A stretch of DNA of 64,000 nt from Chloroflexota bacterium (GCA_022561385.1 JADFRG010000009.1:9051-73050); one strand, 5' to 3'; positions 47,715-64,000 are shown, counted from the stretch's first letter. The notes: generated from the sequence alone by a model not told the origin. Numbers and translations are program-made.

Positions 47715-47877
47715 ACCGTGGCGGGGGGGGGTAAGAAGCATCCTGGCGCTACCGTTAGAATCGACCCAGGGACGGTAACGAACGCATTATGGCCCCGGAT
47801 GCGCTTGAGGTTAGGCGGGAAGCCCGCTTGTTGGGCAGCGGCCAAGCTAGAGGTCTGCATGTAGGCCGGAGGTCTGC

Positions 47878-47906
47878 TTGCGTGGCCAATATTCAAATGT
47901 TATAAT
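47878..47906 (+). promoter_or_regulatory. Putative sigma70 promoter of rho
   Basis: TTGCGT-N17-TATAAT with TG extension. Confidence 0.6.
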
Positions 47907-48049
47907 CGTCGCGTTAGAACCTTTTCAAGAAATCCCCAACCACGCAAAAGAGCCTGGCTGTCATCTAGCACCTATAAAGTGATTCCTATCCAGCGCACGG
48001 GAGTTTGCCAAATCCGCGGATAGCCTCACTTCCCGCAGGGAGAAAACCT

Positions 48050-49330
48050 ATGAACATTGGGGAACTGGAAGCCTTACCCCTTACCGATCTGCGCGCCAAG
48101 TCCAAGGAAATGGAGATTCAGGGCGCCACCCGCCTGAAGAAGGAGGATCTCATCCTGCGCCTCATGCAGGCCGAGGCCGAGCGCAAAGGCCTTGAGCTTC
48201 GAGGCGGCGTGCTTGAGGTCATGAACGAGGGCATGGGATTCTTGCGCGCCGAACATTATCTTCCCGGCCCGAACGACATCTACGTATCGCAATCTCAGAT
48301 TCGCCGCTTCGGTCTGCGTACGGGCGATATGGTCATCGGCCAGATCCGGCCACCAAAGGATACGGAGAAATACTACGGATTGTTACGGGTCGAATCCATC
48401 AACAATCTGAATCCGGATGAAATCAAGAACCGTCCCAAGTTTGAGAAGCTGACCCCGATCTTTCCGGAGGAGCGTTTCAACCTCGAGACGGATCGACATG
48501 CGCTGGCGAATCGGATGCTGAACCTGGTGGCTCCGATTGGTAAAGGGCAGCGTGGTTTGATCGTTTCGCCTCCGAAGGCCGGTAAAACCACCGTGCTCAA
48601 GGGTATTGCGAATGCCATATCGCAGAACTACCCGCAGGTTCACCTCATGGTGGCGCTCATTGGGGAGCGCCCCGAGGAAGTGACCGATATGGATCGCTCG
48701 GTGGATGCGGAAGTGATTTCCTCCACCTTCGACGATCCCGGCAGCTCGCATGTACGGGTGGCCGAAATGGCTCTCGAGCGCGCGAAGCGGTTGGTGGAAT
48801 GTGGTCGTGACGTCGTAATCCTACTCGACTCCATCACGCGCCTTGCGCGGGCCTATAACTTGATGGTCACGCCCTCCGGCAGGACGTTATCCGGTGGATT
48901 GGATCCGGCTGCGCTTTATCCGCCGAAGCGTTTCTTCGGTGCCGCGCGCAATCTGGAAGACCATGCGTCGCTGACCATTATCGCCACCTGCCTGGTGGAC
49001 ACCGGCTCGCGATTGGACGACGTGGTGTACGAGGAGTTCAAGGGCACCGGCAACATGGAGTTACATCTCTCGCGCCGGCTCCAGGAGCGCCGGGTGTTTC
49101 CTGCGTTCGACATCGATCGATCCTCGACCCGTCGCGAGGAGCTGCTGCTCGGACCGGACATCACGCAGAGGGTATGGCTCATGCGGCGGATGTACTCACA
49201 ATTGACCACCGCCCCACCCAATGGGGCCGGAATGGAGATGGTCAAAGCTACCGAAGCCATCATCGACCGAATTCGGCGCACGGAGAATAACGTAGAGTTC
49301 CTCGAAACGCTGACCGAAGACACAGCCTAG
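48050..49330 (+). CDS. rho: Transcription termination factor Rho (start ATG 48050)
   Basis: DIYVSQSQIRRF, PPKAGKT, LDSITRLARAYN, EEFKGTGNME. Confidence 0.97.
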   Translation: MNIGELEALPLTDLRAKSKEMEIQGATRLKKEDLILRLMQAEAERKGLELRGGVLEVMNEGMGFLRAEHYLPGPNDIYVSQSQIRRFGLRTGDMVIGQIRPPKDTEKYYGLLRVESINNLNPDEIKNRPKFEKLTPIFPEERFNLETDRHALANRMLNLVAPIGKGQRGLIVSPPKAGKTTVLKGIANAISQNYPQVHLMVALIGERPEEVTDMDRSVDAEVISSTFDDPGSSHVRVAEMALERAKRLVECGRDVVILLDSITRLARAYNLMVTPSGRTLSGGLDPAALYPPKRFFGAARNLEDHASLTIIATCLVDTGSRLDDVVYEEFKGTGNMELHLSRRLQERRVFPAFDIDRSSTRREELLLGPDITQRVWLMRRMYSQLTTAPPNGAGMEMVKATEAIIDRIRRTENNVEFLETLTEDTA

Positions 49331-49537
49331 GCAAGCGGGCTGGTCCCGAAATCGTCGAATGGCCGGCTGGGCTCTTGTTGGGACGGTTCGGTCACAATGA
49401 GCGCAGAGACCGTTTCCTACTAGACAAACCATTTTTACTTGACATAAAACACCTAGACCCTGGGCGATCGGGATGTGTTATTATCCGCGCTGTCCCAGGA
49501 ATGCCGGCGTAGGCCGCGCGTATAAGATGTTAGGAGC

Positions 49538-50647
49538 GTGCCCGGCACAACCCGACGAGATGCCTTGAATTCAGACGACTCCCCAAATCGAAAGCGAATT
49601 TGGTTGCCTCGATACGCCGAACATGCCGGATTTCTGCTCATCGCTGCGGTTGGCCTGCTCGTGGCGCGTGCCGGACTAGAGAGTCTTCCCGATCGTCCTG
49701 AAGCGGCTGCCGCGCCGGAGGTATCCGATGCGGAGCCGCTTGTTTTAGAACTTCCTGACTACGTCCAGCCTTCGGATCAATCCCTCCGTCGAATTGCCAG
49801 TGTGCACACGTTGATTCCAACCCGCGAGCGGTTGACCATATTGAAGTACGTGGTTCAGGCGGGTGATACGCTTTTTGGGATCTCCAATCGGTTCGGACTT
49901 CAGCCGGAGACGGTCCTTTGGGGTAATTTCGACACTCTGGAAGACAATCCGCACAGCCTGAAGCCAGGCCAGGACCTCAATATCCTGCCCGTAGACGGCA
50001 CTTTTTATGTGTGGAAAGAGGGCGATGGCCTGATCGGGGTTGCCGATTTCTTTGGAGTGTCTCCACAGGACATTCTGGATTGGCCTGGAAATCAGCTGCC
50101 GCAAGATTTGGATTTTATCAATCCCGATATCGAACCGGGATTTCCAATCGTGATACCGGGTGGGTCGCGGGAGACCGTAGATTGGCGAGCGCCGCGTATC
50201 ACTCGTGCGAATCCGGCTTCGGCCAGGATTCTGGGCCCTGGATTCTGTGGCTCGGTATATGACGGGCCGGTCGGCGCGGGCTATTTCGTGTGGCCGACAC
50301 CAGGGCGCTCAATCTCAGGTTATTCATTCAGCATCAACATTCATCCCGCACTTGACATCGGGGGAGGCGAGGGCAACGCGATCTACGCCGTCGACGCGGG
50401 GGTGGTGGTTTACGCGGGCTGGCACAATGGCGGATATGGCAACGTCGTTGTGATTGATCACGGGAACGGCTGGCAAAGCCTCTATGCTCACATGAGCAGC
50501 GTGTCCGTAGGTTGTGGCGACGGCTTGTTTCAGGGAAACGTAATTGGAGGAATGGGCAGCACCGGAAACAGCTCCGGGACACACCTGCACTATGAGATGC
50601 AGAACGATCAATTCGGGAAGATCAACCCGCTCAATTTCTTACCGTAA
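49538..50647 (+). CDS. LysM + M23 peptidase
   Basis: YVVQAGDTLFGIS LysM; HPALD, HGNGWQSLYAH, HLH M23 motifs. Confidence 0.9.
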   Translation: MPGTTRRDALNSDDSPNRKRIWLPRYAEHAGFLLIAAVGLLVARAGLESLPDRPEAAAAPEVSDAEPLVLELPDYVQPSDQSLRRIASVHTLIPTRERLTILKYVVQAGDTLFGISNRFGLQPETVLWGNFDTLEDNPHSLKPGQDLNILPVDGTFYVWKEGDGLIGVADFFGVSPQDILDWPGNQLPQDLDFINPDIEPGFPIVIPGGSRETVDWRAPRITRANPASARILGPGFCGSVYDGPVGAGYFVWPTPGRSISGYSFSINIHPALDIGGGEGNAIYAVDAGVVVYAGWHNGGYGNVVVIDHGNGWQSLYAHMSSVSVGCGDGLFQGNVIGGMGSTGNSSGTHLHYEMQNDQFGKINPLNFLP

Positions 50648-50669
50648 CCTGAATGTTAAACTCTGATCC

Positions 50670-51749
50670 GTGAACCGGACACGCGCCCTAGCGTTTTTCA
50701 GATCGTCTGTTTTTTGGAGCGCGGCGCTCGCGTTAGCGGTTTTGGGTGTGGCGGCCGCCGGCGTGCGGGCCAGGGCGGTGACCCCCGTGCGTCCGAAAGT
50801 TGACGAGAGCCCCCCGCCAACCTCCGCACCCGCGCTGCTCAACATTGAGGACCTTCCCTCTTTTGTTGTGGCAGAGGAGGCAGGAATCTCCCGGTTATCG
50901 GATGTCCATACCATTATCCCGACCCGCCCCAGGCTCGGCCTGCTCAAGTACCAGGTTCAGCTGGGCGACACGCTATTCGGCATTGCTGATAAATTTGGTC
51001 TGAAGCCCGAGTCAATCTTGTGGGGCAATTGGTACGAATTGGATGGAGATCCCCATTTCATCGCGCCCGGGCAGGATCTCAATATTCTGCCGGTCGACGG
51101 TGCGCTGCACCGGTGGTCGGCGGGCGAAGGATTGAATGGGGTGGCGAGCTTCTACGGGGTCACGGCTCGCGATATTCTCGACTGGCCAGGCAACAATATC
51201 GATCCTGCCATGGATCCTGCCAATCCGGACATAAAAGAGGGCTCAGGTCTGATCGTGCCGGGCGGGAAGCGGCAGCCGCCCAGCTGGCAGCTGGTGCGTA
51301 TCACGCGCTCCAATCCGGGGGTGGCAAGTATCCTGGGGCCGGGCGCGTGCGCCGCGGTCTCAAACGGACCGACCGGCGACGGTGTCTTCGGTTGGCCAAG
51401 TACGACCAAGGCCGTCACGGGAAATCCGTATATTCCGGGTGTGCACGAGGCGATTGATATTGGTGGCGGCGCGGGGAGTGGAATTTTCGCTTCGGACGAC
51501 GGAGTTGTTGTATACGCCGGTTGGAACGACTGGGGTTACGGCTACACCGTCGTGATCGACCATGGGAATGGCTGGCAGACGTTGTACGCCCACAACGGCC
51601 AGATCAAGGTGGGTTGTGGTCAGGCGGTCACTCAGGGGAGTGTAATCGCCGGAATGGGCTGCACCGGCAAGTGCAGCGGTACACACGTACATTTCGAAAT
51701 GCGCAGTGATACATTCGGGCGCGTGAACCCGCTCAATTTCCTCCCGTAG
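50670..51749 (+). CDS. LysM + M23 peptidase (tandem paralogue)
   Basis: YQVQLGDTLFGIA; HEAID, HGNGWQTLYAH, HVH; same INPLNFLP-type ending. Confidence 0.9.
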   Translation: MNRTRALAFFRSSVFWSAALALAVLGVAAAGVRARAVTPVRPKVDESPPPTSAPALLNIEDLPSFVVAEEAGISRLSDVHTIIPTRPRLGLLKYQVQLGDTLFGIADKFGLKPESILWGNWYELDGDPHFIAPGQDLNILPVDGALHRWSAGEGLNGVASFYGVTARDILDWPGNNIDPAMDPANPDIKEGSGLIVPGGKRQPPSWQLVRITRSNPGVASILGPGACAAVSNGPTGDGVFGWPSTTKAVTGNPYIPGVHEAIDIGGGAGSGIFASDDGVVVYAGWNDWGYGYTVVIDHGNGWQTLYAHNGQIKVGCGQAVTQGSVIAGMGCTGKCSGTHVHFEMRSDTFGRVNPLNFLP

Positions 51750-52227
51750 CGCCTCACAAGACGATCGAGCAGAGATACTCCGGCCGGATGGCTCTTATCC
51801 GCGGGCCTAGGCGACTCAGATGTAAATCGTTGTAGGACGGGGATGTTTATGCCGGAGGAGGTCCGGTACAGTCCGGCTGTCTCATCCATTTTTGAGCGGG
51901 TGGGTGGCGGAGATTGACGGGAGGTCAGGCACGAGACGCGCTTCTCGATGCCTAACGAACGGAATCTGCAGTTATCTTTACCGGCATCCGCGGCGCGCCT
52001 GGTTCGGCGTGGGGCCATCAGAGGGTTCTGACCGTGGAAAACGTGCCGTCAGATCTAATCGCGATCGCGCACGAGGTTTTGTAGAGAACACTCTTTGCTC
52101 GCAATTCTGCACATATCGATTCTCAAGATTAGACGGCAATCACTCGCATATACTCGATAATCCAATCGTATATGGGCCGCCTCGATCTAAATTATGGAAA
52201 TGGATGGGCATTGTCCATCCAATAATA

Positions 52228-52234
52228 GTTAGGC
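52228..52234 (+). mobile_element. First cassette core site GTTAGGC (attI-like or remnant attC R' box)
   Basis: GTTRRRY match, complementary to GCCTAAC at 53085; preceded by TGGATGG/CCATCCA hairpin. Confidence 0.45.
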
Positions 52235-52370
52235 GAATTACCATCTATACGCAGGCAGCGTGCGCAAATGTCGGTTTTGTTCCATTCAATTCCAAATGCT
52301 ACATTTTCGGTAAAGTCACTCCAATCAGAAATGAAAGGAATGAAAAATCAAGGCGCGAAAAAAGTCACTC

Positions 52371-52994
52371 TTGAACCAAATTGCTGACTTTGTTGAATCG
52401 CTTGGAGAAAGTCCGAAAACGACGAGACAGCACCAACCCCTGATTCAAGTGGTACAGCGTCTTAGAGAAGGGGTTGTCATTGACAAGTATACATACGTGG
52501 CCGTTTCTATTCTGCTGATGGCCCTCATCCTGGGTGCTTGTCAGGGTGCAGCATCCCCCATTGTTTTCCAGGACGCGCCTGTGCCGCCATTGCCGGTAAT
52601 ACATCTACACCACGGTGGACAGGTCTACGATGGGAAGGAAGGCAGTCGCTGTTGGCCGGCAGAAACGGGGGTCAGCCTATGCGCGGATGAAGGACCATTT
52701 CCTTGGAAGGTTCTTGATACAGCGCTGCCCGTGCCCGTTGCCACAGGAGACAGCATAACCGTAGAAGTTGAGGCTGACGGTCGACCAGATAGTATTCAGG
52801 TTGCTATTTACGACGCGACAGCCGAGCAGGCCTCCGATGCGTGGAGGCAAGTCATTGAGCTGGAGCCTAAACTTGAGCTACCATTTCGCGTTGATCTGCC
52901 AGAAGGTACGTACTTCATCCGTATCTCTGGACGATGGGCAGTTGGAGATGTCGCCTACAAGTTCAAATTGGCCGTCAGCTCTCCCTCGGAATGA
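52371..52994 (+). CDS. Hypothetical lipoprotein, cassette 1 (real start probably near 52479)
   Basis: Hydrophobic stretch ending in lipobox LGAC; ends just before attC. Confidence 0.65.
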   Translation: MNQIADFVESLGESPKTTRQHQPLIQVVQRLREGVVIDKYTYVAVSILLMALILGACQGAASPIVFQDAPVPPLPVIHLHHGGQVYDGKEGSRCWPAETGVSLCADEGPFPWKVLDTALPVPVATGDSITVEVEADGRPDSIQVAIYDATAEQASDAWRQVIELEPKLELPFRVDLPEGTYFIRISGRWAVGDVAYKFKLAVSSPSE

Positions 52995-53084
52995 AGAAGC
53001 CGTTGCGTGTGCGCAGTCGGCATGCGTCAACTCCGGTTGAGCGGGAAGCAGTCGAGGGACTGGCTTTCCATGGGGAGCGGGGCG

Positions 53085-53202
53085 GCCTAACACCCGCTGC
53101 ACCCGACGCGGCGGCAATTGAAAGTCCTGGAGCGAACGACGGCAACGGTCAGAGAAACTGGTATTCCAAAGTCCGCCGCGCGGGTGAGCTTCTCCGTTAG
53201 CT
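53085..53202 (+). mobile_element. attC site (118 bp, intact)
   Basis: GCCTAAC-acccg-CTGCACCCGACGCGGCGG ... CCGCCGCGCGGGTGAGC-ttctcc-GTTAGCT; extrahelical G positions conserved. Confidence 0.9.
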
Positions 53203-53307
53203 CGCATTACCTTGGTCTGTTCATCAGATACTTAGTGTCAAAGGCAAAACGGACTGTGTTCGAACCGATGATATGCTAAGAACTCGACTTCACGGAAGGA
53301 GCAAATA

Positions 53308-54090
53308 ATGGAAAGCAACACGTTTCGCTGGGAAGATGCGCGCCAGTTCAATTGGTGGCAGCTACTGTTGGCCACCTTTATCCCCAGTGGGATTGCCTTC
53401 TTCCTGTTTCATATTGTACTGCCGCGCCTGGTCGCCAATGGCGGGGGACGCCTTTCAAGTTGGGCCACAGTGGCCAGCATTGGCCTGTTTGCCTTTTCAT
53501 TGGGTGGGCTTTTTCTGCTGAACAAAGAGGCCAAAGAACTCGGAGTTTCCATCTGGAAGCGCATGAGCCTCCGGGGTCTCTCCTTACGACAATGGGGGCT
53601 ATATATTGTGCTGCTAGTCGTAGCGCTTCTACTGGCGTTCCTCATCCAACCGGTGACTGTCGGCTTTATGGAAGCGCTCGACTTCTTCCCACCAGACTAT
53701 TTTCCCTTCATACTCGACCCGCGCATCGACCCACTCAGTGCGCCAGAGAGCGTGATTTCCCCCAACTTGGCCATTCGCGGCAATTACAGTCTCATCCCGT
53801 TAATGTTGGTGGCCCTGGCACTGAACATCCTCACCGAGGAACTATATTTCCGTGCTTGGATGCTGCCGAAGATGGTCAAGTGGGGGAACTTGGGCTGGGT
53901 GCTGAACGGCGTTTTATTTGCGTTCTATCACAGCTTCCAGCTGTGGCTGCTACCTACTCTGCTTGTCGCCAGCCTGTCCTTCGCTTTTCTCTTCTATCGC
54001 AGCCGCAGTTTATGGGTGGTATTTGTTGGCCACCTAGTCGGCAATTTTCTTCTGACTGCACTTGGGCTTGTTGCTTTGATCGCGAGCTAG
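53308..54090 (+). CDS. CPBP/Abi (type II CAAX) intramembrane metalloprotease, cassette 2
   Basis: EELYFR, F..YH and H..GN motifs; multi-TM. Confidence 0.88.
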   Translation: MESNTFRWEDARQFNWWQLLLATFIPSGIAFFLFHIVLPRLVANGGGRLSSWATVASIGLFAFSLGGLFLLNKEAKELGVSIWKRMSLRGLSLRQWGLYIVLLVVALLLAFLIQPVTVGFMEALDFFPPDYFPFILDPRIDPLSAPESVISPNLAIRGNYSLIPLMLVALALNILTEELYFRAWMLPKMVKWGNLGWVLNGVLFAFYHSFQLWLLPTLLVASLSFAFLFYRSRSLWVVFVGHLVGNFLLTALGLVALIAS

Positions 54091-54291
54091 CCAGTCGCGT
54101 AGAGGAATACTGAAAAGACCTCGACCCATGCAATGGGTCAAAGTAGCGAAGCTTGGACCTCTAGCCCAGAGTTCTAGGCCCACTCGAAATAGTCAAACTC
54201 GCAACTGTTCGAATCGAAGAAACTAAGGCCGCCGCGCCATTTCATCATGATTATTGAGTGTTCTTTGGCTCCTATCTTCAGGATGAATGCG

Positions 54292-54494
54292 AGCTAACAA
54301 CTCACTGGAGCGGACCCGGCATCCAATTTCATCTGCTGGGGTTGTAAACAGGTAATCCCATCGTCGCTGTGGGGTGACACTCCAACTTATCATCGCAGCC
54401 AGGCCGACTTCGCAGGAGGTCGGGTATTGTCGTCTACGTCGGGCCGCTCCCCGCATAAGAACGCGGGATCTTCGACAGCTCGCAGTCGTTAGGT
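54292..54494 (+). mobile_element. attC site with 27-nt insertion in L' box
   Basis: AGCTAAC-aactc-ACTGGAGCGGACCCGG ... CGGGCCGCTC[54450-54476]AGCTC-gcagtc-GTTAGGT. Confidence 0.85.
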
Positions 54495-54546
54495 TTTACA
54501 AACCTAGCGAATAGATTGTAGTGGACTATAAGGAGATAATTGAATT

Positions 54547-54966
54547 ATGGTAGATGTGAAGATAAAGCTTTCAGCATTATGGGCAGCTCGAATGTTAACT
54601 GGTTTGCAGGGGGATACGCTGCGATCTAGTGATGCGGTATCTTTAAAGGAATTAATAGCGGGAGAAACCGCTGTACCAGTAACTCGTGAATTGTTGTTGG
54701 TATTCGCGATATTATTCGTGATTCCGATTTTTATGGTTTTCCTGTCAGTGGCGTTGAAGGATAAAGCGAATCGCCGAGCAAACATCATCTTAGGCATATT
54801 CTTTGTTGGGTTTGATCTCCTGTTTTTGATCTTGCTCTTATTTGTTCTTCCGGCATCTCCCGCTTATGACATATTTTTGGCATTTGTATACCCTGTGTTT
54901 ACTGGACTAGTTGTCTGGCATGCATGGAAGTGGCCTAAACAGGAAAGAGTGGAAGTCACACCATAG
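54547..54966 (+). CDS. DUF6326-like membrane protein
   Basis: VKIKLSALWAARML...P..M..LS..L....NR.ANI...WHAWKWP pattern. Confidence 0.72.
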   Translation: MVDVKIKLSALWAARMLTGLQGDTLRSSDAVSLKELIAGETAVPVTRELLLVFAILFVIPIFMVFLSVALKDKANRRANIILGIFFVGFDLLFLILLLFVLPASPAYDIFLAFVYPVFTGLVVWHAWKWPKQERVEVTP

Positions 54967-55073
54967 ATAGACGCTATCCGTTGGAACAGATAGCTGCGGC
55001 GCATAGCTGTGTTGAAAAAGGACACATAAAGTGAAATGTAGTCATAATTTTGGAACATAACAACAAACCCTAA
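54963..55073 (+). pseudogene. C-terminal remnant of MDR-family alcohol dehydrogenase
   Basis: [35 protein letters not shown], homologous to the end of 58303..59298. Confidence 0.82.
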
Positions 55074-55084
55074 CAAATTAGGAG
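55068..55084 (+). mobile_element. Collapsed attC (R'' and R' boxes fused)
   Basis: CCCTAAC-aaa-TTAGGAG, versus ACCTAACaaag[...]GTTAGGAG at the homologous junction 59293-59391. Confidence 0.65.
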
Positions 55085-55092
55085 GAATTCAA

Positions 55093-55809
55093 ATGACAAA
55101 TCGTATTGCCGAAACATCGCCACTTGTTTATGCAAGAGTTGCAGGGGGCTTGTGGCTAATTCTCGCCATATTCGGTGGCTTCGCATTTGTTTCTGTTTCA
55201 AGTCTTCTTGTGCCCGGAGAGGCCGCTGCAACAGTCAGTAATATCATGGCTTCTGAATCGCTATTCCGTATCGCCATTTTGAGCGATCTATTCAGCCAGA
55301 CGGTCTTTATAGTGTTGGTTCTAGTTTTGTACAAGTTACTCAAACCAGTGAACAATTTCGCTGCTTTGCTTATGGTTGTGTTCGTTATAGTCAGTGTCTC
55401 GCTACAGTCCATCAGTGCGCTTAACCAAATTGCTGTCCTGTTTCTATTGAGCGGTGCTGACTACTTGAGAGCTTTCCCCACAGATCAGTTGCCTGCTCTG
55501 GTGTTGTTATTTCTCAATATGCGCGAAGCTGGATTTGAGATTATCGCCCAGATATATTTTGGCCTTTGGCTCCTTCCCCTTGGTTATCTAGTTTACAAGT
55601 CGGGTTTCCTTCCCAGAATTCTGGCCGTCTTGTTGATAATTGCAGGTTTTGGCTATCTGATAAGTGTTGTTACATTCTTTCTTTTTCCCAACTTCGATAC
55701 GGATATTTCCCAGTTTACGTTTATTGGGGAAGTCACAATGCTCTTGTGGCTTTTGATTAAGGGTGTAAACGTCGAAAAGTGGGAAAAACGTGCTCTTGAA
55801 TCTGCCTGA
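55093..55809 (+). CDS. DUF4386 family membrane protein
   Basis: ARVAGGLWLI, LYKLLKPVN, FGLWLLPLGYLVYKSGFLPRILA, GE..MLLWLLIKG. Confidence 0.85.
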   Translation: MTNRIAETSPLVYARVAGGLWLILAIFGGFAFVSVSSLLVPGEAAATVSNIMASESLFRIAILSDLFSQTVFIVLVLVLYKLLKPVNNFAALLMVVFVIVSVSLQSISALNQIAVLFLLSGADYLRAFPTDQLPALVLLFLNMREAGFEIIAQIYFGLWLLPLGYLVYKSGFLPRILAVLLIIAGFGYLISVVTFFLFPNFDTDISQFTFIGEVTMLLWLLIKGVNVEKWEKRALESA

Positions 55810-55861
55810 ATATAACCCATGCCGAAGGGATAGGGACTTCGCTTTCGAGCCACTCCCCGGC

Positions 55862-55987
55862 GGACAACTTCTCCAAGACTCAAAGCGACGCGGATTTGGC
55901 CTGTGAGCAGGAGGGGCGGCATGGGTAGGGGCCGCGACGGACGCCGCAGGCAGAAGCTTCGTCACTCCGGCCGCGCCGGTATGGGCG
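55862..55987 (+). mobile_element. Possible heavily degenerate attC
   Basis: GGACAAC...ACTCAAAGCGACGCGG ... CCGCGCCG-GTATGGGCGG; the GGCGG matches the complement of the 56810 flank (GCCGCCTAAC). Confidence 0.3.
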
Positions 55988-56014
55988 GACAGAATCAATC
56001 ACACGGACTCGGAG

Positions 56015-56683
56015 GTGCTTATGGCTATTGAACCCGCGGGCTACGCTGCCCGTCTGGAGGTCGACTACCCGGAAAAGCTGGACCGGCTGACAACGTTCTT
56101 CCGAATAATCTGGATCATTCCGATCGCCATCATCCTGAGCCTCATCTCGGATGCTGGCCAGACGGTCACCAACACGGTTTTCCTCAATGAAGCCGGTGAG
56201 GTTACAAGGACAACTCAGCGGACGGCGGGTGGGCTGGCGAGTGGTCTCTCTGCAGTCACGGCCTTGATGATCCTATTCCGACAGCGTTATCCGCGCTGGT
56301 GGTTCGACTTTTCTCGCGAGCTGACCCGCTTCGGGGCCAGAGTCAACGCCTACGCGGCCCTGCTCACCGACCAGTACCCCTCGACCGTCGAAGAGCAGTC
56401 TGTCCACCTGGAGATCGACTACCCGGACGTGAAACGCGACCTGAATCGGTGGCTGCCACTGGTCAAGTGGTTCCTGGCGATCCCTCACTACATCGTTCTG
56501 CTAATTCTGGTGCCGCTAGCTGTCTTCGCCGTGCTTTTCGCTTGGTTCGCGATACTCTTCACCGGCCGATACCCGAGAGGTCTGTTCGACTTTGTCGTGG
56601 GAGTGGGCAGGTGGGGCCTGCGCGTCGGGGCGTACGCCTTCCTGCTCGTCACAGATCAATATCCGCCGTTCAGCATGCGCTAG
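56015..56683 (+). CDS. DUF4389 family membrane protein
   Basis: Two repeats of LxRxxxFFR/LNRWLPLVKWFLAIPH ... YPR.LFDF ... TDQYP. Confidence 0.85.
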   Translation: MLMAIEPAGYAARLEVDYPEKLDRLTTFFRIIWIIPIAIILSLISDAGQTVTNTVFLNEAGEVTRTTQRTAGGLASGLSAVTALMILFRQRYPRWWFDFSRELTRFGARVNAYAALLTDQYPSTVEEQSVHLEIDYPDVKRDLNRWLPLVKWFLAIPHYIVLLILVPLAVFAVLFAWFAILFTGRYPRGLFDFVVGVGRWGLRVGAYAFLLVTDQYPPFSMR

Positions 56684-56809
56684 CACCCATCGTAGCTAAG
56701 CTCAAGGACCTCTGTCGGCCGGTAGCTGCCTCTGCGTCGGCTGCGGGGCAGCCATACTCCAGGCTCATCAAACTTCGATAGATCAGCCTTCGAGGTAACC
56801 CCAAATGCC

Positions 56810-56881
56810 GCCTAACCAATCAATGCTGCGGACCCCAAAAAGGATGACGCTTTTCGTGGCCGCTGATCTCAAACGTTAGGC
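56810..56881 (+). mobile_element. attC site (72 bp, intact)
   Basis: GCCTAAC-caatc-AATGCTGCGGACC ... GGCCGCTGAT-ctcaaac-GTTAGGC; R boxes perfectly complementary, EHB G and A. Confidence 0.92.
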
Positions 56882-56917
56882 AGCGTTGCTGACAATCGTC
56901 CAAAGCCTGCGCATTAT

Positions 56918-57286
56918 TTGCCGAAGCCTAAGGATATTCACCACTGGCAAGACAGAGAGTCGTTGATATTGCCTGGAGGATCTGACATAAAGAAACTGTT
57001 CGGCGTGTTTATTGTTTTGATGATGATGTTTGCGATTTCCGGGTGTGCGGCTGGTCCTAATGAATTGAGGGATCTTCCTGATGATGAAGGAAAGGTCGCC
57101 GGCTTTTGGCAGGGCCTAGGGCATGGAGTTATCTCTCCTTTTGCATTCTTGATTTCACTATTTTCCGATGCTGTGCATATCTATGAAGCCCATAACAATG
57201 GAGGCTGGTACAACTTCGGCTTCCTACTCGAGGCATCGATTATCTTTGGAGGAAGTGGACGCGGAGATGCAAGACGTTGGCGCTGA
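56918..57286 (+). CDS. Hypothetical lipoprotein cassette (likely start ATA 56987 behind GGAGGA)
   Basis: (M)KKLFGVFIVLMMMFAISGC signal/lipobox; AGFWQGLGHG...NNGGWYNFGF. Confidence 0.65.
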   Translation: MPKPKDIHHWQDRESLILPGGSDIKKLFGVFIVLMMMFAISGCAAGPNELRDLPDDEGKVAGFWQGLGHGVISPFAFLISLFSDAVHIYEAHNNGGWYNFGFLLEASIIFGGSGRGDARRWR

Positions 57287-57299
57287 TACGATGAACGCT

Positions 57300-57461
57300 G
57301 CCTACCGATGAGCTCGAGCACTCTCCGAGTGGATCCGGACCCGGGATGGGCTGACTTATGCAGGAGAAGGTGACCAATCGGACTGCTAGAAGGGTCTCTG
57401 AAGGTTCCATTTCCGGCCGCTTACCCAGAAAATGGGCATAGGCAGCTCGTGGCCGTTAGGG
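57300..57461 (+). mobile_element. Degenerate attC with two insertions (17 nt and 21 nt)
   Basis: GCCTACC-gatga-GCTCGAGC[57320-57336]GGACCCGG ... CCGGCCGCT[57422-57442]CAGCTC-gtggcc-GTTAGGG; core matches the 54292 site. Confidence 0.75.
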
Positions 57462-57549
57462 CGGCGCTCGCATTCGTATTGCGGGGATTTGCCACAAATA
57501 TCCCTATGAGACCAACACTGCCTCTCGCTTTAGTCTGGAGGATGACAAG

Positions 57550-58221
57550 ATGAGCATAGATATGAATATCGTCAGGCTTTTGGGCGCAGCACAATTGACT
57601 ATTTTTGTAGCCAGCATCCTCCATGAACGCCTGCTCGCATCAGTAGTTGGATCCGGGAGCATATCCGACTTCCTTGTGAATATTTCAAAAAACGTCACCC
57701 GGATGCGGATCAGTAATCTTCTTGCACTGGTTGACAGCATTGGAATCGTTGTCCTGGGAGTCCTGTTTTATAGCGTCTTCAGCAATAAGTACCCGATCAT
57801 CGCGCTTGTAGCCCTGGGATTCTACTTGGCTGAATCAATAACTCTGGCCGTGAGCAAGATTGGGGGCTTTGCTCTGATTCCTTTAAGCCAGGAATTCGTA
57901 GAGGCGGGCGCTCCAGAACCCTCCTACTTTCAAACGCTGGGTGACTTCTTGTATTACGGCGTTGATAGACAGGGAGACCGCATACATAATCTATTCTTCT
58001 GCCTGGGCGGAATACTGTGGTACTACCTACTTCTCATATCGGGGGGCATCCCACAGGCATTATCTCTCTGGGGCCTTGTAGCGGTCAGCCTGCTATTAAT
58101 ACCTGTCCTGTTGCTGCTCTATGATCGTGATTTCAGTCACCCCGTAATGGCAGTCGGACTTCTAAACCTTCCATTCGAACTCGTTCTAGGGCTATGGCTG
58201 ATCGTTAAGGGATTCAATTAA
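57550..58221 (+). CDS. DUF4386 family membrane protein (C-terminus probably shortened by nonsense mutation)
   Basis: FFCLGGILWYYLLLIS..IPQALSLWGL ... PFELVLGLWLIVKGFN. Confidence 0.82.
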   Translation: MSIDMNIVRLLGAAQLTIFVASILHERLLASVVGSGSISDFLVNISKNVTRMRISNLLALVDSIGIVVLGVLFYSVFSNKYPIIALVALGFYLAESITLAVSKIGGFALIPLSQEFVEAGAPEPSYFQTLGDFLYYGVDRQGDRIHNLFFCLGGILWYYLLLISGGIPQALSLWGLVAVSLLLIPVLLLLYDRDFSHPVMAVGLLNLPFELVLGLWLIVKGFN

Positions 58222-58302
58222 TCTGCAATCTTTTCCGAGTCTGCTAAAACTAATATGGCCGAAGATAGAATTACCGGATCAAAGTAAATTTGGAGGAATC
58301 TC

Positions 58303-59298
58303 ATGAAGGCGATTGTATACACAGAATACGGCCCACCGGATGTTCTTCAGCTCAAAGAGGTAGGTAAACCTTCTCCCAATGACAATGAAGTACTGATAAA
58401 AGTTCATGCGGCATCCGTAAATCCACTTGACTGGCATTTACTGAGAGCTACACCGTTCCTGGTCCGCCTAACGGAGGGGCTTCTAAAACCAAAAAAAGAG
58501 ATACTCGGAGCCGACGTAGCGGGGCGGGTTGAAGAGGTTGGAAAAAATGTAAAGCAGTTTCAAACAGGTGATGAGGTACTTGGGGACTTTTTCGTGGACG
58601 GTTTAGGCGGTTTTGCCGAGTATGTATGTGTTCCTGAAGATGCAGCATTAGTACAAAAACCGACCAATCTGACATTCGAGGAAGCAGCGGCCGTACCTGT
58701 AGCGGCAGTCACCGCCCTGCAGGGTCTTCGCGATAAAGGACAGGTTCAGCCCGGGCAAAAGGTTTTGATCAATGGTGCGTCTGGGGGTGTGGGTACGTTT
58801 GCGGTGCAGATTGCCAAATCGTTCGGGGCTGAGGTTACTGGAGTGTGCAGTACGAGGAATTTGGACATGGTGCGCTCAATTGGTGCAGACCATGTCATTG
58901 ATTACACACAAGAGGATTTCACCCAAAACGGGCAGCGTTATGACCTCATTGCCGATGCTGTGGGAAATCGTTCGGTTTCAGATTATGGGCGTGCATTAGG
59001 TCCCAAGGGAATCTGCGTCATCATCGGATATTCTTCCCCGGTTCTCTTGTTCCAACATACGTTCCAAGGAGCATGGATTTCAATGACCGGGAGTAAGAGA
59101 ATCGGTCTCATGGGGACGATGAAACCAAACAAGAAAGATTTGGTTTTTATGAAAGGGCTTCTTGAAGCGGGCAAAGTAGTGCCTGTTATCGATCGACGTT
59201 ACCCGTTAAGTGAGGTTGCTGAAGCTATCCGGTATCTTGAAGGTGGACACGCCCAAGGAAAAGTAGTCATAACCGTGGGACATAACGACAAAACCTAA
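58303..59298 (+). CDS. NAD(P)-dependent MDR-family (quinone-reductase-like) alcohol dehydrogenase
   Basis: VHAASVNPLDW, G.DVAG, INGASGGVGTFAVQIAK, PVIDRRYPL; lacks GHE zinc motif; stop overlaps attC R''. Confidence 0.9.
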   Translation: MKAIVYTEYGPPDVLQLKEVGKPSPNDNEVLIKVHAASVNPLDWHLLRATPFLVRLTEGLLKPKKEILGADVAGRVEEVGKNVKQFQTGDEVLGDFFVDGLGGFAEYVCVPEDAALVQKPTNLTFEEAAAVPVAAVTALQGLRDKGQVQPGQKVLINGASGGVGTFAVQIAKSFGAEVTGVCSTRNLDMVRSIGADHVIDYTQEDFTQNGQRYDLIADAVGNRSVSDYGRALGPKGICVIIGYSSPVLLFQHTFQGAWISMTGSKRIGLMGTMKPNKKDLVFMKGLLEAGKVVPVIDRRYPLSEVAEAIRYLEGGHAQGKVVITVGHNDKT

Positions 59299-59390
59299 CA
59301 AAGCGCTGCCCCGCCAAGAACGCGGGATCCTCGACACCCGACCGCTATTCCGCTGCGCTTCATAGCGGTAGGTGAGCTTGGTCGTTAGGA
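59293..59390 (+). mobile_element. attC site with 26-nt insertion in L'' box
   Basis: ACCTAAC-aaagc-GCTGC[59310-59335]ACCCGACCGCTAT...ATAGCGGTAGGTGAGC-ttggtc-GTTAGGA; removal gives a canonical 72-bp attC. Confidence 0.88.
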
Positions 59391-59399
59391 GCAATTCAA

Positions 59400-60137
59400 A
59401 TGACAAACCGTATCGCCGATATGTCACTACGCAAAGCTGCAAGAGTCGCAGGGTTCGGGTATCTAATCATTTTTTTACTCGGTCCCTTCACTAATTCTAT
59501 TTCTCGCGAGAATCTTATTGTGGCGGGAGATGCAGCAACAACAGCCAGTAATATTCTGGCTTCTGAGTCGCTATTTCGCATGGGCATTGCTGGAGGGGTA
59601 ATCTTGCTTGTGGCTGATGCGGTAGTGGCTTGGGCACTCTATATTTTACTCAAGCCGGTAAATAAGAGCCTCTCGTTGCTTGCGGCGTGGTTTAGGTTGC
59701 TGTTTGTCGCTTTTGCTGGAATCGCTGTTCTGAATTTATTCTTTGTTTTGCTACTTTTAAGTGGTGCGGACTACCTGACAGTATTTGAAACAGGCCAGTT
59801 GCAAGCTCAGGTGATGATGTTTCTCGGTGCGCATGAATTTGGAATTAATTTTTCGTTTGTATTTTTTGGCCTTCATATATTTCTCCTTGGTTACCTAATT
59901 TTCAAGTCTGGTTACATTCCCAGAATTTTGGGCATCTTGCTGATAATTGCGGCTGTGGGCTATCAGATAGATAGTTTTGCAAGTTTTCTTTCATCCACCT
60001 ACGCCGATAACGAAGCTTTATTTATCCTGTTTGTTGCCGTGCCTGCAATTATTTCGGAATTTTCACTTACCTTGTGGCTCTTGATTAGAGGTGGAAAGAT
60101 CCAACAGCAGGATAACCCTGCTCCTGCATCTGCCTGA
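59400..60137 (+). CDS. DUF4386 family membrane protein (paralogue of 55093..55809)
   Basis: MTNRIAD..LRKAARVAG, LASESLFR, LYILLKPVN, FKSGYIPRILG; RBS supplied by attC GTTAGGAG. Confidence 0.86.
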   Translation: MTNRIADMSLRKAARVAGFGYLIIFLLGPFTNSISRENLIVAGDAATTASNILASESLFRMGIAGGVILLVADAVVAWALYILLKPVNKSLSLLAAWFRLLFVAFAGIAVLNLFFVLLLLSGADYLTVFETGQLQAQVMMFLGAHEFGINFSFVFFGLHIFLLGYLIFKSGYIPRILGILLIIAAVGYQIDSFASFLSSTYADNEALFILFVAVPAIISEFSLTLWLLIRGGKIQQQDNPAPASA

Positions 60138-60193
60138 ATGTAACCCTTGCCGTTGGATCGATTTTAGACCAATCGGTCTCAAATCTTAGTAAA
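60138..60193 (+). mobile_element. Possible degenerate attC
   Basis: ATGTAAC...CCGTTGG / CCAATCGG-TCTCAAATCTTAG resembling TCTCAAACGTTAG of the 56810 site. Confidence 0.3.
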
Positions 60194-60210
60194 GAAAGGG
60201 AGCGAGTCGG

Positions 60211-61107
60211 ATGACCAGTACGAATGGTCGACAAGGAGAACGGGGCTATCCCAACTCAAGTGCCCTCCAAACCGCGGGGAAGATTGTGCGCGGGTTGGAC
60301 TCGATTCATCCTGCCCTTGCCAGCGCAGTCGTCAACACGCTATTCCGCATGCCATTCTCCAAGTCTCCAACCCCTGCAGAGCGAGCCGCACTCGACGGCG
60401 CAGACCGAATGGACCTACCGTTCCGGAGTCGTTCGCTGGCCGCATATGCATGGGGGACGGGACCCACGGTGCTGCTGATTCACGGTTGGGCTTCCAACGC
60501 AGGCGCTATGCGGCATCTGGTGGAGCCCCTAGTAAAGAAAGGTTTTCGGGTGGTTGCCTTCGATGCCCCAGCGCACGGATCTTCGCCAGGGAGGACAAGC
60601 GATGCGGTGGAGTATGGATCGGCCATCCGCGAGGCGATTCAGTTCTTCGCCCCGGTGCATGGTATCTTCGCCCACTCCTTCGGGGCCACATCCACCCTGC
60701 TGATGCTCTCCGAAAGTGACGACCTGCCGATCGCAGCAGTTGTAGTAAACAACCCCCCTTTGGAGCTGGAGATGCTGCTTCGCATCTTTGCTGCCTCGTT
60801 GGCCCTTCCAGAACATCTCGTACACAGGATCTACGACCACGTAAAGAAGAGGTTTGGAAAGCCGGTTGAGTACTTCAGTTTGAGGGAGCGCATAAGATCG
60901 GTTCGGATTCCGGGGCTTCTCATCGCCGACCGGGACGATCGCCTGGCGACATTCGAAGACTCCGAACTCATCGCCTCCCGTTGGGCGCGGGGTCAGCTGT
61001 TTACGACCGAAGGCCTCGGCCATCAGGGTGCCCTGCGCGACGGAGAAGTCATCGAAGAGATAGCCTCTTACTTTAAGGAACGGCTACAATCGCGAACAGT
61101 CGCGTAG
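60211..61107 (+). CDS. Alpha/beta hydrolase
   Basis: LLIHGW, FDAPAHG.S, AHSFG nucleophile elbow, D and GLGH catalytic positions. Confidence 0.88.
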   Translation: MTSTNGRQGERGYPNSSALQTAGKIVRGLDSIHPALASAVVNTLFRMPFSKSPTPAERAALDGADRMDLPFRSRSLAAYAWGTGPTVLLIHGWASNAGAMRHLVEPLVKKGFRVVAFDAPAHGSSPGRTSDAVEYGSAIREAIQFFAPVHGIFAHSFGATSTLLMLSESDDLPIAAVVVNNPPLELEMLLRIFAASLALPEHLVHRIYDHVKKRFGKPVEYFSLRERIRSVRIPGLLIADRDDRLATFEDSELIASRWARGQLFTTEGLGHQGALRDGEVIEEIASYFKERLQSRTVA

Positions 61108-61241
61108 GTTGTCCCGATCAGAACGGACTCACCAAAGCGACAGGGTTCTCACTGAGTACAGCACGTGGTGGTTGGGCCTGCTCCTCGGCGACCGATCGCT
61201 CAAGCCTCAACAGATACGGCCTCTACCTTAATCCGCCAAGT

Positions 61242-61412
61242 GGAGCCCCATTGATTTTGGCGGCAGGGTCGTTAATTATGTTCGGCCTTCCTCGTCTCTC
61301 GCCGATCTCGCTCTTATTGGCTCTTCCAATAGCTTTGTTTGAAATGGTTCTCGCGGTATGGCTTATAGTCAAGCGATTCAATTCATCTGCAATCGATTCC
61401 GAGCCTGCCTAA
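61242..61412 (+). pseudogene. C-terminal remnant of a fourth DUF4386 gene
   Basis: GAPLILAAGSLIMFG...LALPIALFEMVLAVWLIVKRFNSSAIDSEPA*; no start, upstream part eroded. Confidence 0.8.
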
Positions 61413-61546
61413 ACAGATATAAACGAGAAAGTATGAGCACCAGCCTCACTACTATTAAATAGTTTCTTCGCCCCACTTCTCATCCTAGCCACTGGCTCTT
61501 AGAAGAAAAAGCCCCGCGCAGAAACGTTATTAGAAGTGCCCCTAAA

Positions 61547-61725
61547 GGAGGCTCAGCTCCTCGTCTTGTGTAGTACGCGGAACCTAAAGTCAGCAAAAAT
61601 CAAGTATCAAGATCCCCGGTGACCTGGAATTGCGCATTCAGGTCGCCTTTGTTTTTGCGGTTTCAAGATGTTGTCATTTGAGGCTTTGCATGGAGACAAT
61701 ATCGGCCTCAAAAACTCGCTGGAAC
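61547..61725. repeat. Dispersed repeat A, copy 1 (~180 bp, contains hairpin + T-tract)
   Basis: Shares 21-nt and 23-nt identical blocks with 63373..63549. Confidence 0.88.
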
Positions 61726-61883
61726 GGCCAAAAGGCGCAATCTGGGGGTCGGAAGTATTTAACTTTTCTACTTGGTAAATTAGGGCGACTGTTTACCGCT
61801 ACACTCAAACAGGTTTAAATATTGAGTCATCATGATGAATAAAAAAGTGATTGTAATTTCAAATTAGAAGGATAATTACCCAT

Positions 61884-62291
61884 ATGAACAAAAGAGTGAA
61901 AATTGTGTTGTTGGGATTGATGATATGGGGAATAACATTCATCGCAGGCGCCTTCATTTTTATCGTTTTTGGTGCCGAGGCCGGCGGCCCCTTGGTTGAG
62001 ACGGAGTGGATCAATGGGATCCGTGCATTTTTCCTGGCGATTGGTTTAGCCACGGCGTTATTTCTAGTTTATAGAGGTAATGGACAAGACTACAAACGTA
62101 CGGCTTGGGAAGCTGGAATAGCATGGTACGTAATCATTTTGTTGATGAACTTGATTGTTCTAATCGGACTTATTGGCCTGGAATTAGAGCTTTGGTTCCC
62201 ATTGATTCTGATTGATTCCTCCGTTGCAATAATCCCTATCGTGGTCGGCTATCTCCTGGCTGGGACTAAAGAAAAGAGTTTAGATGATTAG
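61884..62291 (+). CDS. Hypothetical 4-TM membrane protein
   Basis: GAAGGA RBS, ATG, four hydrophobic segments. Confidence 0.72.
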   Translation: MNKRVKIVLLGLMIWGITFIAGAFIFIVFGAEAGGPLVETEWINGIRAFFLAIGLATALFLVYRGNGQDYKRTAWEAGIAWYVIILLMNLIVLIGLIGLELELWFPLILIDSSVAIIPIVVGYLLAGTKEKSLDD

Positions 62292-62346
62292 CGAACAAAA
62301 ATCTTTTATTATGGAAGTTTAGTTCAAACCCCCTTAAGACAAGACC

Positions 62347-62395
62347 GGCACCTTCTCAAAGTTCACAGATCCGGTTCAATCCTGGGCCCGCAAAC
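62347..62395. repeat. Direct repeat B, copy 1 (49 bp)
   Basis: 46/49 identical to 63152..63200. Confidence 0.92.
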
Positions 62396-62439
62396 ATCTG
62401 GCTTTTTCTGAAGAATGTGTGATTCGGAGGGCATTGACA

Positions 62440-63135
62440 ATGAAGATTCGACAAGGAAGAGTCCTCGCCACTGGTTTTATATCTATTGGCTTGATGGTGG
62501 TCACCGCATGTGGATCGGCCACGATCGAGACCGTCGCGGCGCCCCCAACTGCGCCTCCCGCGGCCGAGACCGTCGCGGCGCCCCCAACTGCGCCTCCCGC
62601 GGCCGAGGAGGGTGAGGCTGCTCTTCAATGGTCCTCCCCGCCGAGGATGGAGATCGATCGCTCCAAATCTTATGAGGCTGTATTCGTGACGGAGATCGGC
62701 GACATCAGGGTGCGGCTTTATGCTGATCAAGCTCCGGTGACGGTCAATAATTTTGTATTTCTGGCCAGGCAAGGCTACTACGACAACACAACCTTTCATC
62801 GTGTCCTACCTGGTTTCATGGCCCAGGGCGGCGATCCGACCGGTACAGGGGCCGGAGGGCCGGGTTACACGTTTGAAGATGAATTCGATCCGGATCTTCA
62901 GTTTGACCGGGGCGGTTTGTTGGCGATGGCCAACCGCGGGCCAAATACCAACGGCGCGCAGTTCTTCATCACGTTGGCACCAACGCCTCACCTCAACGGC
63001 CTTCACACCATCTTTGGCGAAGTGGTTGAAGGTGCTGACGTCCTCAGCAGCCTGAGGCTGCGGGATCCAGCGGCCAACCCCGATTACGAGGGAGATGGTC
63101 TGGTTTCAATCGAGATCATCGAGATCGATGATTAA
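62440..63135 (+). CDS. Cyclophilin-type peptidyl-prolyl isomerase lipoprotein (start ATG 62440)
   Basis: Lipobox VTAC; [42 protein letters not shown]. Confidence 0.92.
62527..62604 (+). repeat. Perfect 39-bp in-frame tandem duplication ([13 protein letters not shown] x2)
   Basis: GAGACCGTCGCGGCGCCCCCAACTGCGCCTCCCGCGGCC twice. Confidence 0.95.
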
Positions 63136-63151
63136 TTTCCCACAAAGCGGA

Positions 63152-63200
63152 GGCACCCTCTCAAAGTTCACAGATCCGTTTCAAGCCTGGGCCCGCAAAC
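63152..63200. repeat. Direct repeat B, copy 2
   Basis: GGCACCCTCTCAAAGTTCACAGATCCGTTTCAAGCCTGGGCCCGCAAAC, 16 nt after PPIase stop. Confidence 0.92.
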
Positions 63201-63372
63201 TGGAAATTGAAGTCGCCTTCTCCGCCGCACTAAGTTGATTTACCAAACGCAAAAACCGACTTAGACGAGAAGGGAGCAGATCTGAAACTGGTTGTGCGAT
63301 ACCCCTGCGGGGACGACTCTCCCAGAGAGCGCATATGATCCGGACAAGAAGTGTTATTGGAAGTAGCCTCGC

Positions 63373-63549
63373 GGAGGCTCAGCCTCTCGGCTCGCGTAGG
63401 ACGCGGAACTAAGATTCAGCACAATAAGAATCAAGGTCCCCGGTGACCTTGAATGGCACATTCAGGTCGTCTTTGTTTTTGCGGTTTCAAGCGGTCTTCA
63501 TGAGATGCTTCGCATGGAGACAATATCGGCCTCATACACTCCCTGGAGC
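63373..63549. repeat. Dispersed repeat A, copy 2
   Basis: See 61547..61725. Confidence 0.88.
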
Positions 63550-63840
63550 ACTCTGCGAGTGGAGCCGGGCCCGGCATCACCCCACAAGATTGGCTGATCT
63601 ACCAACCGATCCGGCTGCGACCAGGGTCTGGAACTAAATCGATACTTGGAAAGTTATTGACAGTGACGAGGTAACGATAGGCCGCCTGAAATCGGAATTA
63701 TAGGCAATCGGATTCGCAGATTGGTTTTCAGAACAGACCTTCTCATAATCAATCGGGGTTAGGCCGTTATGGTCTGGAGCGGCCGAAGAAATCTAGCCCC
63801 TTGCGGTTCATATGAAGAAGGCGGTCACATGGAATTGGCG

Positions 63841-63999
63841 TTACGCTTCCCGACTGGGCTGGCGCAACAGCCAGACCAGCACGCCCCCTGTAATAGTCCC
63901 GTAAACGACTAGGCCCAAGACCACGGCCACGGCCACGGCAGAAGCCACGGCAAAGCCCACGGCCTCGAGCATGGCCTCTACCACGGCCTCGCCCACGCC
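63841..63999 (-). CDS. Partial hydrophobic (membrane) protein, 3' end only
   Basis: Open frame from window edge GVGEAVVEAMLEAVGFAVASAVAVAVVLGLVVYGTITGGVLVWLLRQPSREA*. Confidence 0.55.
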   Translation of the reverse strand, partial: GVGEAVVEAMLEAVGFAVASAVAVAVVLGLVVYGTITGGVLVWLLRQPSREA

Positions 64000-64000
64000 A

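Follow-up and report, generated by a model that had tools for sequence, protein, structure and literature searches.

The window analyzed here is a 64,000-nucleotide stretch (G000:C1:9051-73050) of a 2.9-Mb metagenome-assembled genome (MAG) from a Chloroflexota bacterium, assembled in 94 contigs (92% complete, 2% contamination); positions are counted from its first nucleotide. A preliminary description, made from the sequence alone, had placed an integron-type gene-cassette array without an integrase at 52228-60200, in a probable Chloroflexota chromosome. The chromosomal setting holds. The host is an Anaerolineales (Chloroflexota) bacterium of marine sediment, and the 81-kb contig C1 also carries rho and M23 peptidase genes (identified with Pfam) upstream of the array. 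More than 0.8 of the sequence words sampled from the stretch are present in approximately 20 marine-sediment runs from eight studies. The cassette genes are co-oriented and AT-richer, as first described: every cassette open reading frame (ORF) is on the + strand, and GC content in the array is 0.46-0.57 compared with about 0.58-0.60 upstream.

The M23 peptidase gene ends at 51749. Beyond it, on the - strand at 51822-51961, tblastn and blastn identified a relic of an integron-integrase gene (intI). The relic comprises about 47 codons, corresponding to residues 261-277 and 279-307 of intact IntI and including the C-terminal catalytic region; codons 1-260 are deleted, and what is left contains one frameshift and one in-frame stop. 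With the IntI of contigs C11/C25 as the query, tblastn returned RSLGIEKRVSCLTSRQS / ATHPLKNG*DSRTVPDLLRHKHPRPTTIY (E = 2e-7), and by blastn the relic is 72% identical to C11:25848-25966, which lies within intI in the same orientation. A search with the integron-integrase profile TIGR02249 (cut-off 265 bits) found no match anywhere on C1. A complete integron requires an intact intI adjoining its array, and here none adjoins. The array is thus without a working integrase gene nearby, as had been claimed, yet it is not without any trace of one, since the relic stands at its head.

Two intact intI genes are encoded elsewhere in the genome. One is located at C12:1770-2705 and scores 458 bits against TIGR02249. 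The second is spread over two contigs, with residues 65-313 encoded at C11:25778-26524 (389 bits) and residues 1-106 at C25:2-319; the contigs overlap by 127 identical bases, so that these pieces make up one gene. On the 3' side of the C25 intI lies an attI-like site, followed by five 124-nt repeats with RYYYAAC/GTTRRRY ends. C12 has one such repeat, and the family is present on many other contigs of the genome.

Between the relic and the first cassette is an attI-type region (52100-52234, + strand), recognized by its homology to C25 and C85. Approximately 130 nt are homologous among the three loci (72% identity to C85 by blastn, E = 2.6e-10). Within it, an attI-type simple site at 52216-52234 reads CCATCCAATAATA-GTTAGGC, with its crossover at G52228|T52229. 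The sequence CCATCCAATAATAGTTAGGC, whose GTT occupies 52228-52230, has an 18-base identity with the site in front of the intact C25 intI, and the 29-nt attI core scores 38 against C25, compared with a shuffle maximum of 24. The relic and attI are about 270 nt apart, close to the distance between intI and attI in the intact integron. The simple site recurs at C25:585, C85:1044, C51:1898, C61:33468/36006/36706 and C7:19445. The three C61 copies separate co-oriented ORF units, resembling cassette boundaries. The longer region of approximately 130 nt is common to the window, C25 and C85 only, and no intI relic was found on C85.

Because both a relic and an attI-type site stand at its head, the array is better explained as a former complete integron than as an orphan cluster. 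It might instead have been split from an intact integron by rearrangement, or its cassettes might have been inserted at a secondary site, in which case it never had an integrase of its own. Both routes to attC-site clusters that lack an integron-integrase (CALINs) are described by Cury et al. 2016 (PMC4889954), and a genome fragmented into 94 contigs leaves room for a rearrangement. An origin of this kind would not, however, be expected to leave an intI relic in the expected orientation at nearly the intact spacing from an attI homologous to that of the intact integron, and we consider it very improbable.

Downstream of attI, eight cassettes can be delimited on the + strand. Cassette 1 (52229-53196) contains an ORF at 52371-52994 (207 aa at most) with a lipobox-like LGAC, for which Pfam finds no family, and ends in attC s1. 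Cassette 2 (53197-54488) encodes a CPBP/Rce1-like membrane protease (53308-54090; PF02517, E = 1e-14) and ends in attC s2, a 203-nt site with a conserved long loop and a homologue at C61:44080-44336. Cassette 3 (54489-55075) carries a DUF6326 ORF (54547-54966; PF19851), followed at about 54967-55065 by a zinc-dehydrogenase gene of which a 3'-terminal relic is left, recognized by comparison with 59190-59400. Cassette 4 (55076-55935) encodes a DUF4386 protein (55093-55809; PF14329, E = 2e-49). Cassette 5 (55936-56875) contains a DUF4389 ORF (56015-56683; PF14333) and attC s3, which is 72 nt long, and has a paralogue on C61 behind an s2-like attC. Cassette 6 (56876-57455) has a small lipoprotein-like ORF (56918-57286 at most) and attC s4. 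Two genes identified with Pfam occupy cassette 7 (57456-59384), a DUF4386 gene at 57550-58221 and a zinc-type/MDR dehydrogenase gene at 58303-59298, followed by attC s5. Cassette 8 (59385-60200) encodes the third DUF4386 protein of the array (59400-60137; PF14329, E = 1e-55).

Five strong attC sites lie exactly where they had been placed: s1 at 53085-53202, s2 at 54292-54494, s3 at 56810-56881, s4 at 57300-57461 and s5 at 59293-59390. Their R' cores have the G at 53196, 54488, 56875, 57455 and 59384, respectively. Inverted cores, R'' RYYYAAC and R' GTTRRRY, are found as described except in two cases, the s4 R'' (GCCTACC, one change) and the s1 R' (GTTAGCT). The complementarity between the start of a cassette and its own R'' holds precisely as reported: 13/13 positions pair between GTTAGCTCGCATT (53196) and AATGCGAGCTAAC (54286) in cassette 2, and 12/13 between GTTAGGCAGCGTT (56875) and AACGCTGCCTACC (57294) in cassette 6. 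For cassette 1 the figure is 7/8. Likewise, a stop codon does overlap an R'', with TAA at 59296-59298 lying inside ACCTAAC (59293-59299) of s5.

An initial scan for attCs with a regular expression plus duplex search was too noisy, and we used a covariance model instead. This model, R1, was built from 15 aligned attCs on other contigs of the same genome, some of them beside intact integron-integrase genes, and includes none from the window. In a search of the 64-kb window with filters off, R1 matched s1 (32.1 bits, E = 6.4e-7), s3 (29.1 bits, E = 5e-6) and s2 (20 bits, E = 0.0024), each match being on the + strand and exact at its ends. The best further match scored 10.3 bits (E = 1.8), and s4 and s5 were not detected. 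Thus R1 bears out three of the five sites. The other two are missed because hairpin modules are inserted in their arms. Both arms of s4 carry such a module, and its R'' is mutated as well. Its 3' arm shares approximately 90% identity with that of the C14:1114-1279 attC, while C51:11436 resembles its 5' arm and contains the same module. The s5 5' arm is of the s1 type, GCTG^CACCCGACC, broken at ^ by a 26-nt hairpin; without this module s5 pairs as s1 does, GCT[G]CACC..ACCGCTAT with ATAGCGGT..GGTGAGC. On sequence grounds, then, s4 and s5 are members of the attC families to which the other attCs of the genome belong.

Minimum-energy folds of the bottom strands as single-stranded DNA have the shape of attC. 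In s1 and s3 the folds contain an R stem, an unpaired bubble, an L stem and a bulged T on the '' arm, and s1 also has a bulged C on that arm. The extrahelical bases attributed to all five sites are therefore seen in s1 and s3, while s5 takes on the attC shape only when its inserted module is discounted. Folding energies are weak, with z-scores of -1.2 to -2.9 (-2.9 for s3), barely better than shuffles. No Rfam family matched the window at gathering thresholds, and none matched 51.5-64 kb at E <= 1, which is expected because these sites are DNA recombination sites and not RNAs.

The weak energies, together with the lack of an Rfam match even though none would be expected, could suggest that the repeats are intergenic palindromes of another kind, such as repetitive extragenic palindromic (REP)-like elements or terminators, whose AAC and GTT ends arose by chance. 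Several observations already contradict this explanation, to which we give almost no credence. On both C25 and C12, repeats of this family come immediately after attI next to an intact intI. The helices covary: in the R1 training alignment 88% of cells are paired in the proposed helices, compared with 22-45% when the partner columns are slid, and the L stem shows compensatory changes. One strand is kept, with one site per gene, complementarity links cassette starts to their own R'', and junctions found in other populations (below) fall at G|TT. The attCs of the window are heterogeneous, ranging from 72 to 203 nt and falling into at least two sequence classes. At least 38 further attCs of the same family are found on 14 other contigs of the genome, and 12 of 14 congeners also have the family.

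Three weaker sites had been suggested at about 55068, 55862 and 60138, and none of them is an ordinary attC. The first, at the end of cassette 3 (55062-55082), is a collapsed attC (CCCTAACAAA|TTAGGAG) behind the dehydrogenase relic. The second, at the end of cassette 4, is a palindromic site at 55812-55935 (TAACCCATGCCG...CGGCATGGGTA) that has an atypical, perfect 11-bp palindrome and no GTT core, and it scored a non-significant 8 bits with R1. The third consists of an attC-like 5' arm only (60138-60160) at the end of cassette 8, homologous to the arm at 55812-55824 (blastn, 60110-60152 against 55782-55824).

A dehydrogenase-attC-DUF4386 unit occurs twice in the array, at 54967-55082 and at 59190-59400. 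In the first copy the dehydrogenase gene is reduced to the relic of approximately 100 nt, and the interior of the attC has been lost precisely, leaving CCCTAACAAA|TTAGGAG. A motif, ACCGGATCAAAGTAAA, is found at 58273-58288, shortly 5' of the dehydrogenase ribosome-binding site in cassette 7, and also near C61 position 44375, 5' of that of the DUF4389 paralogue. It may be a common leader element of cassettes.

Three genomes of the same genus (G006, G010 and G004) have the M23 peptidase gene and then, within 80-140 nt, a homologue of G000:C7:15651-3612. Because the site is empty in these congeners, the array belongs to inserted DNA that measures at least 33 kb and comprises everything from window position 51753 to the last base of C1 together with C7:28714-15651. 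Five co-oriented attCs on C7 adjoin the empty-site point, and the inserted island has cassette arrays at both of its ends. An imperfect hairpin, CCGGATGGCTCTTATCCG, lies at 51784-51801, just past the peptidase gene, and a near-copy in inverted orientation is found at C7 around 15700, at the other end of the island. This hairpin could be an end of the island or a chance occurrence. At another locus of G004, unrelated to the window, C18:43227-43788 holds an intI that is internally deleted, retaining residues 1-128 and 251-313, and that contains a TAG stop. Decay of intI therefore recurs in the genus. We considered this pseudogene as a syntenic intermediate and rejected it, since it has no DNA in common with the window.

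Taken together, the relic, attI and cassette array indicate that the element is very probably a decayed chromosomal integron. From left to right, it would consist of a dead intI of about 47 codons, an attI insertion site and at least eight co-oriented cassettes, five with a recognizable attC hairpin and three with collapsed, atypical or truncated sites. The original proposal of an integron-type cassette array is upheld in amended form, with an intI relic, an attI-type site, intact integrases elsewhere in the genome and a longer array. Under the rules of IntegronFinder the locus would be classed as a CALIN, as C1 has no TIGR02249 match and only the 47-codon relic. Cury et al. 2016 recognize sedentary chromosomal integrons by a chromosomal location combined with occurrence in every member of a species or with more than 19 attC sites. 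With respect to these features, the locus is chromosomal, has five to eight sites in the window, with five more if C7 belongs to the same island, and is empty in three congeners, and metagenome depth (below) suggests that its content varies.

We compared the locus with related populations using Logan contigs and short unitigs of metagenomes, which record population history and not activity in this cell. These data bear first on whether the structure is real. The genome is a MAG whose assembly is broken by repeats, and an assembly or binning artefact could have joined a foreign array to the adjoining housekeeping genes. But unitigs of several metagenomes from different studies cover 50835-51730, 51750-51884 and 51855-52251 in an unbroken tiling, independent metagenome assemblies reproduce the cassette order across 52734-58090, and the rho and M23 peptidase genes lie upstream on the same contig. 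We therefore give next to no weight to an artefact.

The same data reveal variation at cassette boundaries. In all four DNA runs compared (X1, X3, X7 and X14), another sequence (...GCGCGGTCC) extends to 52227 and cassette 1 begins at G52228, so that cassette 1 stands behind a different attC in four metagenomes. In X3, attI runs on after 52234 into different sequence. In X7, an attI-type site (...CCGAATAATA|GTTAGCT; ...CCACCGAATAATA|GTTAGCT) immediately precedes cassette 2, which begins at 53196, and in X14 cassette 2 begins at 53195 behind yet another sequence. The junctions at 52228 and 53195/53196 are where an integron integrase would cut. Unitig depth relative to the peptidase gene also changes from cassette to cassette: it is 1.2-1.8 in cassette 1, 0.2-0.6 in cassettes 2-4, 0.6-1.0 in cassettes 6-7 and 0.3-0.4 in the hydrolase gene downstream of cassette 8. 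Six runs, drawn from at least five studies, show this pattern. Unitig depth also rises 2-3.5 fold at 56856-56885.

Some apparent differences were set aside. Deletions seemingly present in contigs L102 and L103 are 100-N scaffold gaps, and only their divergence after 55894 is real. The joints 59302>59385 and 55047>61381 were not used, as they are best explained by paralogous stretches (55062-55082 and 58174-58256) that map at 90% likeness. Two runs labelled metatranscriptomic (X17 and X18; WGA, whole-genome amplification) show a depth over 47000-64000 that matches the DNA runs, intergenic DNA included. They behave as DNA and were rejected as evidence of expression.

Excision and insertion of such cassettes are carried out by an integron integrase, which binds attC as a folded bottom strand and cuts between G and TT of GTTRRRY. 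Because the local integrase is gone, any present-day movement would need catalysis in trans, for which the intact IntI proteins of C12 and C11+C25 are candidates; the arrays of both use the same attC family, and C11+C25 also has a homologous attI. Whether integrases acting in trans moved these cassettes, and still do so, we judge to be about an even question.

Alternatively, the array may be an inert fossil, built by a past integrase and now immobile, with the differences among populations stemming from old events, from deletions and from interstrain homologous recombination. This alternative concerns present-day activity only and leaves the identity of the element unchanged. It fits the destruction of the local intI, the three of eight cassette ends that are collapsed, atypical or truncated, and the mutated R'' of s4. 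It also fits the junction at 54488, which is invariant in four metagenomes and points away from movement. On the other hand, immobility is harder to reconcile with two intact IntI genes that have matching attC and attI families in the genome, with junctions exactly at G52228 and G53196 in several samples, and with depth steps that follow cassettes and recur across studies. We regard an inert fossil as a substantial possibility, albeit one that probably does not hold.

Several findings weigh against the interpretation of the locus as a decayed integron with cassettes that have moved. R1 did not detect s4 and s5, the folding energies are weak and three of eight cassette ends are non-canonical. 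The core ..CCAATAATA|GTTAGGC occurs at at least eight places in the genome, and the site at the head of the array is thus not exclusively "the" attI. A scan of 51700-52500 for promoters and terminators found none, including no sigma-70-like promoter that might account for expression of the promoterless cassettes. Variant contigs diverge at 55894, inside the atypical site and away from G|TT, indicating that not all variation is of the integrase type. No circular cassette junctions were seen in the metagenome unitigs, which, like the other population evidence, speak to history alone. The invariance at 54488, the divergence at 55894 and the lack of circular junctions also favor the inert fossil.

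Integrons in Chloroflexi have been reported, CALINs have been defined and loss of intI has been proposed as one of their origins (Cury et al. 2016, PMC4889954). Like CALINs, the locus has at least two attCs on one strand, no functional intI nearby, an IntI encoded elsewhere in the genome, and cargo mostly of unknown function without resistance genes (PMC4889954). Unlike in CALINs, an intI relic and an attI-type site are still recognizable. An intI pseudogene was found near 15 of 279 CALINs (PMC4889954), by a criterion that would have missed the relic described here, which covers less than 50% of the profile. Lineage-specific inactivation of intI has also been described in the chromosomal integrons of Xanthomonas (Colombi et al. 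2025, 10.1101/2025.06.18.660453). The two cases share a fixed chromosomal locus beside a housekeeping gene, decay of intI in some lineages and cassettes mostly of unknown function. The Xanthomonas platform goes back to the ancestor of its genus, whereas the present site is empty in three congeners and the genome has two other, intact integrases.

Sedentary chromosomal integrons can have lineage-specific attC families, such as the Vibrio cholerae repeats. The present array is similar in being chromosomal, in having many cassettes of unknown function and in using a lineage-wide attC family. It differs from the V. cholerae type in phylum, in the presence of several integron platforms per genome and in its heterogeneous attCs with hairpin modules. 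As integrons, CALINs and intI decay are already documented, the locus is a further clear example and not a new kind of element, and existing knowledge of the integron mechanism is unchanged by it. Its value is as a clean, synteny-dated case of CALIN origin, in which the relic and attI remain in place, sister species have an empty site, other contigs of the genome encode two intact integrases, and natural sediment populations differ in cassette content. Integrons are also common in Anaerolineales: of 41 relatives, 16 have an IntI that scores above the family cut-off, and the GTDB species representatives yielded 392 IntI relatives.

The unusual features of the locus are its repeated attI-type sites and the hairpin modules in its attC arms. 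We found five recurring modules of 20-26 nt, located at bulge or extrahelical positions. In the window, the module scan placed M1 in the 3' arm of s2 (54451-54476) and in the 5' arm of s5 (59310-59335), M5 (57315-57334) and M2 (57421-57443) in s4, and another M5 at 63545-63564, in an attC-like 5' arm downstream of the array. M1 (CCCGCnAAGAACGCGGGATC...) has an identical orientation in s2 and s5. The long cores noted in some attCs are indeed present and consist of the conserved long loop of s2 plus small modules in the arms of s2, s4 and s5. Hairpin modules are also found on contigs C2, C7, C10, C14, C43, C47, C51, C61 and C75 of the genome. A literature search returned nothing specific on hairpin insertions within attC arms. 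We tentatively suggest, as an idea more apt to fail than to hold, that attCs of this Anaerolineales genus may be modular, the modules perhaps representing a tiny element that targets folded attC. Separately, the attI-type sites that recur inside arrays, resembling cassette boundaries, could constitute a second kind of integrase site. If either idea were true, it would alter attC recognition by the enzyme as well as by search software. The inserted hairpins may cause standard attC models to overlook sites in Anaerolineales.

The array had been thought to end at 60200, but cassette-like remains extend to about 63650. This decayed continuation (60211-63650, + strand) was delineated with Pfam, blastn against the genome, the module scan and comparison with C61 and C39, and R1 found nothing significant within it. 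It begins with an alpha/beta hydrolase gene (60211-61107), whose paralogue on C7 abuts an attC, and further contains a C-terminal fragment of a DUF4386 gene (61251-61412) and an ORF at 61884-62291. A repeat of approximately 200 nt is present in two copies, each leading into an attC-like 5' arm (61503-61730 and 63347-63590); module M5 lies in the second. The non-coding repeat copies themselves (61503-61723 and 63347-63547) are 80% identical and have no Rfam match. The repeat always leads into an attC-like 5' arm (GGCCTCAAAAACTCGCTGG...), and it is found elsewhere at C61:37722-37940, 43922-44096 and 33230-33297 and at C39:1996-2087.

A cyclophilin gene (62419-63135) is also part of the continuation. 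It is flanked by 49-nt direct repeats at 62347-62395 and 63152-63200, which are identical at 46 of 49 positions. Because 62351-63168 is 95% identical to C36:32856-33673, the cyclophilin gene is a recent duplicate.

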